Positions 43,267 to 45,823 of a stretch of 64,000 nucleotides of DNA are shown in pieces. Position numbers and translations under genes: made by a program. Each line of letters starts with the position of its first letter. The first letter of the stretch is position 1. Location: the NCBI RefSeq assembly GCF_002854065.1, contig NZ_CP024147.1. One strand, 5' to 3'. The notes below the pieces were generated by a model. That model was not told the DNA's origin. It did not search any database and was given only the letters and a program-made list of their open reading frames with translations. This stretch comes from Escherichia coli (GTDB taxonomy: Bacteria > Pseudomonadota > Gammaproteobacteria > Enterobacterales > Enterobacteriaceae).

Positions 43267-43956
43267 CCTGTATTACTCCATGTATTGCAAAAATACTCTC
43301 TTCGCGAATGTCCAGTTGGCTGAAAAGAAAAGACTTATTCACATCAAAAACCCGTAATTAAACGAGGAATAAAGACGCTAATTGTTGATAGTGAGATGAA
43401 GAAATGGTGAGCTGAGTGTTCCTATCAAATCCTTTACTTTCCTCGAAAATCCATCCCAAAAGGGAAGGACTACGGGGATTCTGCATAATTCCCTATGCGT
43501 CTTTCAAGGTAATAAAGGATTAAAATAATTAAATCAGTAAATTCCGAGTGGTGATTTCGGATTTTTCGAAAACCCTGATTCAATGCGGTGTTGCAGCATT
43601 ATTTTCTGTAATAATTACTCTTGATGACTATATGAATTATTGTTTTATGGGGGGGTATAATGATTTATGAGTTTTTACAACTTATTGCAGTAGTGAATCT
43701 GTAAAATATTAAGATGGTGATTGTTTACCTGTGTAACTATGCTCGTTAGGGAAGGTGCGAACAAGTTCCTGATATGAGATCATCATATTCATCCGGAGCG
43801 CATCCCAGAGGGACATCATGAGCCATCAACTCACCTTCGCCGATAGTGAATTCAGCACTAAGCGCCGTCAGACCCGAAAAGAGATTTTCCTCTCCCGCAT
43901 GGAGCAGATTCTGCCATGGCAGAATATGACCGCTGTCATCGGGTAGTGACTCCAAC

Positions 43957-44460
43957 TTACTGATAGTGTTTTATGTTCAGATAATGCCCGATGACCTTGT
44001 CATGCAGCTCCACCGATTTTGAGAACGACAGTGACTTCCGTCCCAGCCTTGCCAGATGTTGTCTCAGATTCAGGTTATGTCGCTCAATGCGCTGAGTGTA
44101 ACGCTTGCTGATAACGTGCAGCTTTCCCTTCAGGCGGGGTTCATACAGCGGCCAGCCATCCGTCATCCATACCACGACCTCAAAGGCCGACAGCAGGCTC
44201 AGAAGACGCTCCAGTGTGGCCAGAGTGCGTTCACCGAAGACGTGCGCCACAACCGTCCTCCGTATCCTGTCATACGCGTAAAACAGCCAGCGCTGACGTG
44301 ATTTAGCACCGACGTAGCCCCACTGTTCGTCCATTTCCGCGCAGACGATGACGTCACTGCCCGGCTGTATGCGCGAGGTTACCGACTGCGGCCTGAGTTT
44401 TTTAAATGGCGGAAAATCGTGTTGAGGCCAACGCCCATAATGCGGGCAGTTGCCCGGCAT
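43957..44460 (-). CDS. insB: IS1 InsB (copy 2)
   Basis: 167 aa. Confidence 0.85.
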
Positions 44461-44654
44461 CCAACGCCATTCATGGCCATATCAATGATTTTCTGGTGCG
44501 TACCGGGTTGAGAAGCGGTGTAAGTGAACTGCAGTTGCCATGTTTTACGGCAGTGAGAGCAGAGATAGCGCTGATGTCCGGCAGTGCTTTTGCCGTTACG
44601 TACCACCCCGTCAGTAGCTGAACAGGAGGGACAGCTGATAGAAACAGAAGCCAC
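44379..44654 (-). CDS. insA: IS1 InsA (copy 2)
   Basis: 91 aa, near-identical to copy 1. Confidence 0.9.
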
Positions 44655-45823
44655 TAGAGCACCTCAAAAACACCATCATACACTAAATCAGTAAGTTGGC
44701 AGCATCACCTGTCATCGAGCCGTTTTATCCCAAGGCGGGCAATGGCCGACGGCCCTATCCGCTGGAGACCATGCTGCGTATTCACTGCATGCAGCATTGG
44801 TACAACCTGAGCGACGGTGCCATGGAAGATGCCCTGTACGAAATCGCCTCCATGCGCCTGTTTGCCCGATTATCTCTGGATAGCGCCCTGCCGGATCGCA
44901 CCACCATCATGAATTTCCGCCACCTGCTCGAGCAGCATCAACTGGCCCGTCAATTGTTCAAGACCATCAATCGCTGGCTGGCCGAAGCAGGCGTCATGAT
45001 GACCCAAGGCACTTTGGTGGATGCCACCATCATTGAGGCACCCAGCTCTACCAAGAACAAAGAGCAGCAACGCGATCCGGAGATGCATCAGACCAAGAAA
45101 GGCAATCAGTGGCACTTTGGCATGAAGGCCCACATTGGTGTCGATGCCAAGAGTGGCCTGACCCACAGCCTAGTCACCACCGCGGCCAACGAGCATGACC
45201 TCAATCAGCTGGGTAATCTGCTTCATGGAGAGGAGCAATTTGTCTCAGCCGATGCCGGCTACCAAGGAGCGCCACAGCGCGAGGAGCTGGCCGAGGTGGA
45301 TGTGGACTGGCTGATCGCCGAGCGTCCCGGCAAGGTAAAAACCTTGAAGCAGCATCCGCGCAAGAACAAAACGGCCATCAACATCGAATACATGAAAGCC
45401 AGCATCCGTGCCAAGGTGGAGCACCCGTTTCGCATCATCAAGCGGCAGTTCGGCTTCGTGAAAGCCAGATACAAGGGGCTGCTGAAAAACGATAACCAAC
45501 TGGCGATGTTATTCACCCTGGCCAACCTGTTTCGGGTGGACCAAATGATACGTCAGTGGGAGAGATCTCAGTAAAAACCGGAAATAACGCCAGAAATGGT
45601 GGAAAAAATAGCCTAAATAGGCTGATTCGATGTGTTTGCGGGAAAAAAATCGGCCCAGATCCGCGAAATTTTAATCAACGAGTCAGCTTGGGAAGAAATG
45701 ACCTGCTTATTCGCACCTTCCTTAGTATCTATTATATTTAGCTATTTATATTGACAATGGCATGTTTATTATATCTATTAATAGTGTAAAGAGATTTTAC
45801 AGCCTTCAGGTTGGAGTGGTTTT

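Follow-up and report, generated by a model that had tools for sequence, protein, structure and literature searches.

An ISKpn26-type insertion sequence interrupted by IS1 in the spacer of an island-borne pgaABCD/dgcT-like locus of Escherichia coli

The window analyzed here, i.e., a stretch of 64,000 nucleotides from contig NZ_CP024147.1 of an Escherichia coli genome (RefSeq assembly GCF_002854065.1), carries a pgaABCD operon for poly-N-acetylglucosamine (PNAG) and, in divergent orientation, a gene for a DgcT-like diguanylate cyclase with a GGDEF domain. The spacer between pgaA and the cyclase gene contains an insertion sequence (IS) of the IS5 family, and this element is itself interrupted by a copy of IS1. 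The coordinates of all features are listed in Table 1. The original prediction had described the arrangement as IS5 with a nested IS1.

Table 1. Features of the nested insertion and of its flanks in the window.
Feature	Position	Strand	Details	Basis
IS5-family element, IS1 nested inside	43750-45721		1972 bp in total	direct reading
Left target duplication of the ISKpn26-type element	43746-43749		TTAG	direct reading; single TTAG in empty sites
Right target duplication of the ISKpn26-type element	45722-45725		TTAG	direct reading; single TTAG in empty sites
ISKpn26-type element, left part	43750-43941	+	192 bp; left inverted repeat, transposase promoter region, codons 1-41 (ATG 43818)	
ISKpn26-type element, right part	44718-45721	+	1004 bp; transposase codons 42-326 (stop 45574), A-tract-bearing 3' non-coding region, right inverted repeat	
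IS1	43942-44709	-	768 bp, apparently intact; ends GGTAGTGAC... / ...GCATCACC	reading frames, repeat finder
Left target duplication of IS1	43934-43941		8 bp, TGTCATCG, inside ISKpn26 sequence	direct reading, length balance
Right target duplication of IS1	44710-44717		8 bp, TGTCATCG	direct reading
GGDEF-side spacer	45726-45823	+	TTGACA 45751-45756 (putative -35), block TTATATCTATTAATA, variable trinucleotide 45792-45794	K-12 and allele comparison
pgaA-side spacer	43267-43745	-	inferred 5' untranslated region, promoter/NhaR region up to about 43624; uninterrupted	alignment to K-12
pgaA paralogue	40846-43266	-	806 aa; first gene of intact pgaABCD operon (37086-43266)	80% vs K-12 PgaA
DgcT-like diguanylate cyclase gene	45824-47191	+	455 aa; MASE4 + GGDEF	76% vs K-12 DgcT

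The outer element starts with GGAAGGTGCGAACAAG and finishes with CTTATTCGCACCTTCC. Direct reading and a repeat finder revealed terminal inverted repeats of 16 bp, GGAAGGTGCGAA(C/T)AAG, at 43750-43765 and 45706-45721, and the 4-bp target duplication TTAG is a YTAR-type site; both are features of ISKpn26 and the IS5 family. The duplication is present on both sides of the element, as had been predicted, in the junction sequences GCTCGTTAG/GGAAGGTG and CACCTTCC/TTAGTATC. For in-silico excision, positions 43942-44717 (776 bp) were removed, and the reconstructed element of 1196 bp matched uninterrupted plasmid copies annotated as 'IS5-like element ISKpn26 family' in one ungapped piece with 100% identity. 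Matches at ≥99% were obtained with at least 3,562 plasmid records, mainly from Klebsiella and Escherichia. ISKpn26 has been tabulated with 1196 bp and a transposase of 326 aa encoded at positions 69-1049 (PMC8796155). The single open reading frame (ORF) for a DDE transposase in the reconstructed element has exactly these coordinates and this length.

In comparison, the excised element shared 90.9% DNA identity with IS5A of strain K-12, with 3 gap columns. Identity amounted to 94.6% in the coding part and to 73.5% and 74.3% in the 5' and 3' non-coding parts, respectively, and 320 of the 326 residues of the reconstructed transposase were identical to K-12 InsH. The two elements have family, layout, inverted repeats and target preference in common, but differ in length (1195 bp for IS5A) and in the 3' 177-bp 'IB' activating region, which is 78% identical and has a changed IHF core. 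IS5 proper was excluded by its length and the low identity. Judged by its sequence, the outer element, a close relative of IS5, is ISKpn26, with which it agrees in length, transposase layout, inverted repeats, 4-bp duplication and, once IS1 is removed, every nucleotide of annotated plasmid copies. The predicted nesting was borne out by the inverted repeats and the IS1 reading frames, while the name IS5 had to be replaced. Because IS1 sits after transposase codon 41 of 326, the copy described here, unlike other ISKpn26 copies, cannot make its own transposase and is non-autonomous, which agrees with the predicted inactivation. An ORF of 292 aa (44696-45574) was noticed that starts with TTG within the IS1 end and continues into ISKpn26 transposase codons 42-326; its product would be an N-terminally truncated transposase.

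The nested IS1 has the ends GGTAGTGACTCCAACTTACTGAT and ATCAGTAAGTTGGCAGCATCACC, i.e., imperfect terminal inverted repeats starting with GGT, and its length is that of the IS1 family (about 768 bp). On the minus strand, it carries insA (91 aa, 44654-44379) and the insB frame (167 aa, 44460-43957). The A6C frameshift site TTTAAAAAAC is located at element position 304, and a -1 shift results in an uninterrupted InsAB' of 232 aa. In the related genome record NQCO02000001.1, the gene at the position of the nested IS1 encodes the InsA zinc ribbon, HTH_Tnp_IS1 and DDE_Tnp_IS1 Pfam domains. From these features, the nested IS1 looks still functional. Its length, GGT...ACC ends, insA and insB' with A6C -1 frameshift and 8-bp duplication are those of the IS1 family, from which it differs as a sequence variant: it was 94.5% identical to K-12 IS1A and 95.05% identical to a second IS1 in the window, and its best match among complete E. 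coli genomes reached 99.0%.

A repeat of 9 nt, CTGTCATCG, is present twice (43933-43941 and 44709-44717), and the original prediction had taken its full length as the duplication generated by IS1. The repeat does exist; the first base of its right copy, however, is the terminal C of IS1 (...CATCACC), and the second IS1 of the window ends likewise with ...CATCACC. Target duplications of the IS1 family range from 8 to 9 bp. Because the ninth repeated base belongs to the IS1 end and 1972 - 1196 - 768 leaves 8, the true duplication is the 8 bp TGTCATCG. The predicted balance of 1195 + 768 + 9, i.e., a 9-bp duplication combined with a 1195-bp IS5, was ruled out by the ungapped 1196-bp match to ISKpn26, from which it follows that the 1972 bp are composed of 1196 + 768 + 8.

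Comparison with the uninterrupted intergenic region, which had been proposed together with the original prediction, became possible through empty sites. With the two flanks joined by one TTAG as query, a contiguous match of 581 bp (98.3-98.8% identity, single aligned piece) was obtained in few E. coli, including LHM10-1, CP52E, CUPS03 and 571, and ...CTATGCTCGTTAGTATCTATT... was unbroken in the alignment. The insertion itself was not detected in complete RefSeq E. coli genomes, as 0 of 5,426 covered ≥80% of the query consisting of flank and IS. Insertion-bearing relatives were found through an exact-protein look-up of the GGDEF protein in GenBank assemblies. CP047094.1 (L009) and NQCO02000001.1 (L010) were collinear with window positions 41824-49254 (7,431 bp) without gaps, at 99.89% and 99.85% identity, respectively, and all four junction sequences were identical in both. 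Eight draft assemblies had the same junction of ISKpn26 end, TTAG and spacer upstream of the GGDEF gene. Their contigs start inside the right arm of ISKpn26 (six of the eight), at 44711, the first base after IS1 (L011), or at 44602, inside IS1 (L018). Including the window genome, at least 11 assemblies bear the insertion.

Since ISKpn26 and IS1 are multicopy repeats that break short-read assemblies, and the draft contigs do stop within them, it was considered that mis-joined repeats might have placed IS1 inside ISKpn26. The chance of this is practically negligible: the four junctions are shared by two independently deposited long assemblies, draft contig L018 runs from IS1 into ISKpn26, neither duplication contains a mismatch, and the match after excision is 100%. 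Because the same junctions occur in independent long assemblies and in drafts, the nested insertion is no assembly artefact and is vertically inherited by a small clone comprising the window genome, CP047094.1, NQCO02000001.1 and at least 8 drafts.

CP047094.1 has been published as the chromosome of Salmonella Enteritidis (Salmonella enterica) strain S13 (PMC8193513), and Salmonella lacks pga (PMC4052769). Because the record carries an E. coli-type locus (99.9% identical) and Salmonella is devoid of pga, its species label looks wrong, and the genome probably belongs to E. coli. Such mislabelling would account for the record not being part of the RefSeq E. coli set.

Between the window and CP047094.1, 6 of the 8 differences over 7,431 positions cluster in 223 bp of the nested IS1 (44032-44254). 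This cluster suggests gene conversion from another IS1 copy after insertion.

With regard to the order of events, the duplication flanking IS1 is composed of ISKpn26 sequence, and therefore IS1 entered an ISKpn26 copy. In a first step, an ISKpn26-type element would have transposed into a TTAG of the AT-rich pgaABCD/dgcT-like spacer and duplicated it; the source was probably a plasmid, as identical copies abound on plasmids. In a second step, IS1 (768 bp, opposite orientation) would have entered after transposase codon 41, duplicating the 8 bp TGTCATCG. That ISKpn26 arrived first at this site and IS1 second, in situ, is the simplest reading and is held with high confidence.

It was also considered that IS1 hit ISKpn26 elsewhere, e.g., on a plasmid, and that the 1972-bp composite then moved as a unit into TTAG by means of an ISKpn26/IS5 transposase supplied in trans. 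Such a transfer would be compatible with the intact ISKpn26 ends, with plasmid copies identical to the outer element, and with the frequent occurrence of ISKpn26 and IS1 next to or within each other on plasmids and chromosomes. However, these juxtapositions, found in PLSDB and in complete E. coli genomes, have different junctions. No single aligned piece covering the inner ISKpn26::IS1 junction of the window, ATGACCGCTGTCATCG/GGTAGTGACTCC, was obtained from PLSDB plasmids or from the 5,426 complete E. coli genomes, and the exact 31-mer across this junction was absent from GTDB representative genomes. The junction is known only at this chromosomal site, within the clone, which makes unit transposition very unlikely. 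The predicted order, outer element first and IS1 second, thus stands as far as the entry of IS1 into an ISKpn26 copy is concerned; for this site, it is the simplest reading rather than a proven one.

The locus hit by ISKpn26 resembles pgaABCD-dgcT (ycdT) of K-12 in gene order, divergent arrangement, spacer length (581 vs 586 bp) and conserved promoter-proximal blocks on both sides. The pgaA-D ORFs (806, 672, 441 and 137 aa) are all full length, as in the LHM10-1 locus, which is 98.8% similar and was annotated pgaA-D by the Prokaryotic Genome Annotation Pipeline (PGAP). The GGDEF protein contains RVGGEEFGV with the GGEEF motif, and MASE4 and GGDEF Pfam hits are recorded for an identical protein. 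Thus, a complete PNAG operon and a cyclase of the DgcT type are present. The protein identities to K-12 (80% for PgaA and 76% for the DgcT-like protein), however, are far below the usual level of orthologues within a species, and the surroundings are different. Window positions 9000-33000 correspond to the E. coli ttdT-dnaG-rpoD region (97-98% identity), after which come an Ag43 gene and type I restriction genes; mug and a tRNA gene with CAT anticodon (21824-21899), taken to be ileX by its position, precede the island. NCBIfam assignments around the pga genes comprised Ag43, HsdM, HsdS, a truncated HsdR, an integrase, an IS903-type transposase and an IS3 transposase. The integrase and the IS903-like and IS3 elements lie downstream, and rpoD, dnaG, ttdT, Ag43 and the type I restriction genes upstream.

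The position of the cassette differs between strains: it lies beside full-length hsdR in strain 571 and beside glaH and the gab operon in LHM10-1. Several further genomes have a 2-hydroxyacid dehydrogenase gene (ghrA-like) after the LHM10-1 allele, an arrangement similar to the canonical position. We infer that the pga/dgcT-like allele is native to another Escherichia lineage and island-borne here. The canonical E. coli pgaABCD-dgcT locus (phoH-ghrA) was excluded as the site of insertion by the protein identities and by the neighbours, i.e., hsdR with IS1 abutting pgaD, the downstream integrase and rpoD-ileX. The insertion is hosted by an accessory paralogue, a copy on an IS-rich island that was acquired horizontally and lies beside rpoD-mug-ileX. 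Hence, the 'divergent pgaA-dgcT regulatory region' of the original prediction is indeed a divergent pair of pgaA and a MASE4-GGDEF gene, but not the canonical one.

The second IS1 of the window (36261-37028) has the same orientation as the nested copy. It abuts pgaD and has no target duplication; hsdR, which it truncates, encodes 683 aa here vs 1038 aa in strain 571. The window, 571 and LHM10-1 have the same junction on the pgaD side of this IS1, but each has a different flank on the other side. The two IS1 copies bracket 37029-43941, i.e., the whole pgaABCD operon together with its upstream region. They could form a Tn9-like compound transposon with pgaABCD and its promoter, or serve as direct repeats able to delete the operon by recombination. 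The common orientation, the 95.05% identity and the bracketed content are in line with this, and the constant junction next to pgaD combined with a variable outer flank associates IS1 with rearrangement of the cassette. On the other hand, the outer flanks (...GTCGTTGGG on the left and TGTCATCGA... on the right) have no duplication in common, the 8-bp duplication of the nested IS1 indicates that the two copies arrived independently, and the 8.4-kb unit was not seen at any other site. This explanation is highly improbable, and a compound transposon as a past event was ruled out by the missing shared outer duplication that is expected of an IS1 compound transposon.

The insertion lies as far from the start codons as predicted, 483 nt from that of pgaA (ATG 43266) and 102 nt from that of the GGDEF gene (ATG 45824). 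In K-12, pgaA has a 5' untranslated region (UTR) of 234 nt, and a fragment from -124 to +234 was used as NhaR- and CsrA-regulated promoter (PMC4052769). Transferred to the window, the transcription start of pgaA would be near 43500 and position -124 near 43624. The insertion starts at 43750, at about -250 from this putative start. The spacer alignment of K-12 and the window showed a strongly conserved block at about columns 245-330, and the insertion point lies in poorly conserved sequence with conserved blocks on either side. Because the insertion is about 125 bp outside the regulated promoter fragment, the case for a regulatory effect on pgaA is weak on sequence grounds. The insertion appears to have been tolerated in the least conserved middle of the spacer, and the pgaA promoter, NhaR region and 5' UTR would be untouched. 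Position 43379, located in the putative 5' UTR 113 nt upstream of the pgaA ATG, is tri-allelic: the insertion-bearing clone has T, other loci have A or G, and the homologous base in K-12 is G; the surrounding spacers are otherwise nearly identical.

On the GGDEF side, K-12 and the island allele share ATATTGACAA...TTATATCTATTAATA...AAAGGGAT and diverge completely upstream of this stretch. TTGACA at 45751-45756 is the putative -35 element of the GGDEF gene, and the ISKpn26 end lies 29 bp upstream of it. Usable mapping of the ycdT/dgcT transcription start was not found in a literature search, which did not cover Jonas et al. 2008. The putative core promoter of the GGDEF gene would stay in place, and anything upstream of about -65 would be shifted 2 kb away. 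Any effect on expression is therefore more likely for the GGDEF gene than for pgaA on sequence grounds, and even there it is only possible. A consensus promoter scan of 43200-45900 returned 4 matches vs 3.6 in shuffled sequence, i.e., no enrichment; one of the matches, a hybrid with -35 TTCGCA in the ISKpn26 end and -10 TATATT in the flank, is given no weight here. An Rfam scan of 36000-49000 revealed no family at threshold.

IS5 and IS1 insertions are known to activate bgl, glpFK, flhDC and fucAO. The activating IS5 insertions at glpFK, flhDC and fucAO have their 3' end proximal (PMC2753651). At glpFK, the 3' 177-bp segment of IS5 was necessary and sufficient for an activation that varied with helical phase and distance; the IHF core mutated in that work is TCAA (PMC2753651). 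The ISKpn26 3' end might similarly activate or de-repress the dgcT-like promoter, either by an IHF bend as at glpFK or by loss of H-NS silencing as at bgl, and lead to more cyclic di-GMP (c-di-GMP) and to a higher PNAG output of the island pga operon. As in the activating insertions, an IS5-family element lies upstream of a promoter in an AT-rich spacer (33.6% GC vs 49.1% for the window); its 3' end is on the near side and its transposase promoter on the far side. IS1 has left the 3' 177 bp intact, the insertion was kept in at least 11 assemblies with both flanking genes intact, and all insertion-bearing loci lack GGA at 45792-45794. However, the precedents apply in part only, since the element is ISKpn26 and its bend/IHF region has diverged (A-tracts are present, but the IHF core TCAA reads TCGA). 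An effect of the glpFK type would also depend on helical phase and on the distance to the transcription start. Activation of fucAO works by transcription that starts at a fusion promoter at the transposase end and reads through (PMC11894529). A transcript of this kind would be hampered here because it would have to cross the oppositely oriented IS1. IS1 is polar in both orientations. In addition, promoter-like matches were no more common than in shuffled sequence, GAA alleles lacking GGA also occur in loci without the insertion, and clonal persistence is equally expected of a neutral marker. An adaptive regulatory insertion is, on balance, unlikely.

The trinucleotide at 45792-45794 in the leader of the GGDEF gene varies among 23 loci including the window, which were chosen by exact protein identity, limiting the statistics: GGA in 7, GAA in 5, GGG in 10 and AGA in the window only. 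All 10 GGG loci bear the insertion. The remainder of the 102-bp spacer was invariant in all 22 loci that hold it in full, and positions 45792 and 45794 account for the only differences between the window and CP047094.1 outside the nested IS1 (2 of 8 in 7,431). In K-12, AAAGGGAT carries the sole GGA of the homologous stretch; the island allele shares this motif, and its GGG, AGA and GAA variants destroy the GGA. The GGA in AAAGGGAT resembles a CsrA site, and the leader variants could represent parallel loss of post-transcriptional repression. When metagenomes were scanned for the leader with any trinucleotide (NNN) at this position, a single contig was obtained, and it carried GGA. Taken further, regulation of the island module might be actively changing in a multidrug-resistant E. 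coli clone associated with livestock, where insertion of ISKpn26 just upstream of the cyclase promoter followed by repeated point mutations of GGA to GGG, AGA or GAA would free the cyclase and, via c-di-GMP, the PNAG machinery from their usual control, and where the two IS1 copies could mobilise or delete pgaABCD. This scenario is considered quite unlikely.

Very probably, the arrangement is a two-step nested insertion of two well-known insertion sequences in an island locus, clonally inherited and likely tolerated. Several points weigh against this interpretation. The order of insertion is not provable from a single locus, and the spacing of 29 bp to a -35 element is set solely by the conserved TTGACA. 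The transposase 3' end faces the GGDEF promoter, the insertion persisted in the clone, and the variation at 45792-45794 could mean that the region is under selection. Moreover, 'tolerated or neutral' is itself only a probable reading. Both elements are known, nested insertion sequences are commonplace, and this is an ordinary insertion; the specific one, although in public genomes, is as yet undescribed as far as the searches show. It is a clean textbook case of nesting, can conveniently serve to mark a small clonal lineage of E. coli, and corrects the annotation to ISKpn26 instead of IS5, an 8-bp IS1 duplication and an island paralogue instead of the canonical locus. Should the insertion or the nearby leader mutations alter expression of the cyclase or of PNAG synthesis, a resistant strain associated with livestock would offer a natural case of biofilm control rewired by an insertion.

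The island span 21824-50300 also holds a GTPase gene. At 49254, the window lacks about 258 bp that are present in the related assemblies L009-L017 (e.g., L009 7431-7690). The missing stretch lies directly upstream of the IS903-like element, which is itself downstream of the integrase gene.

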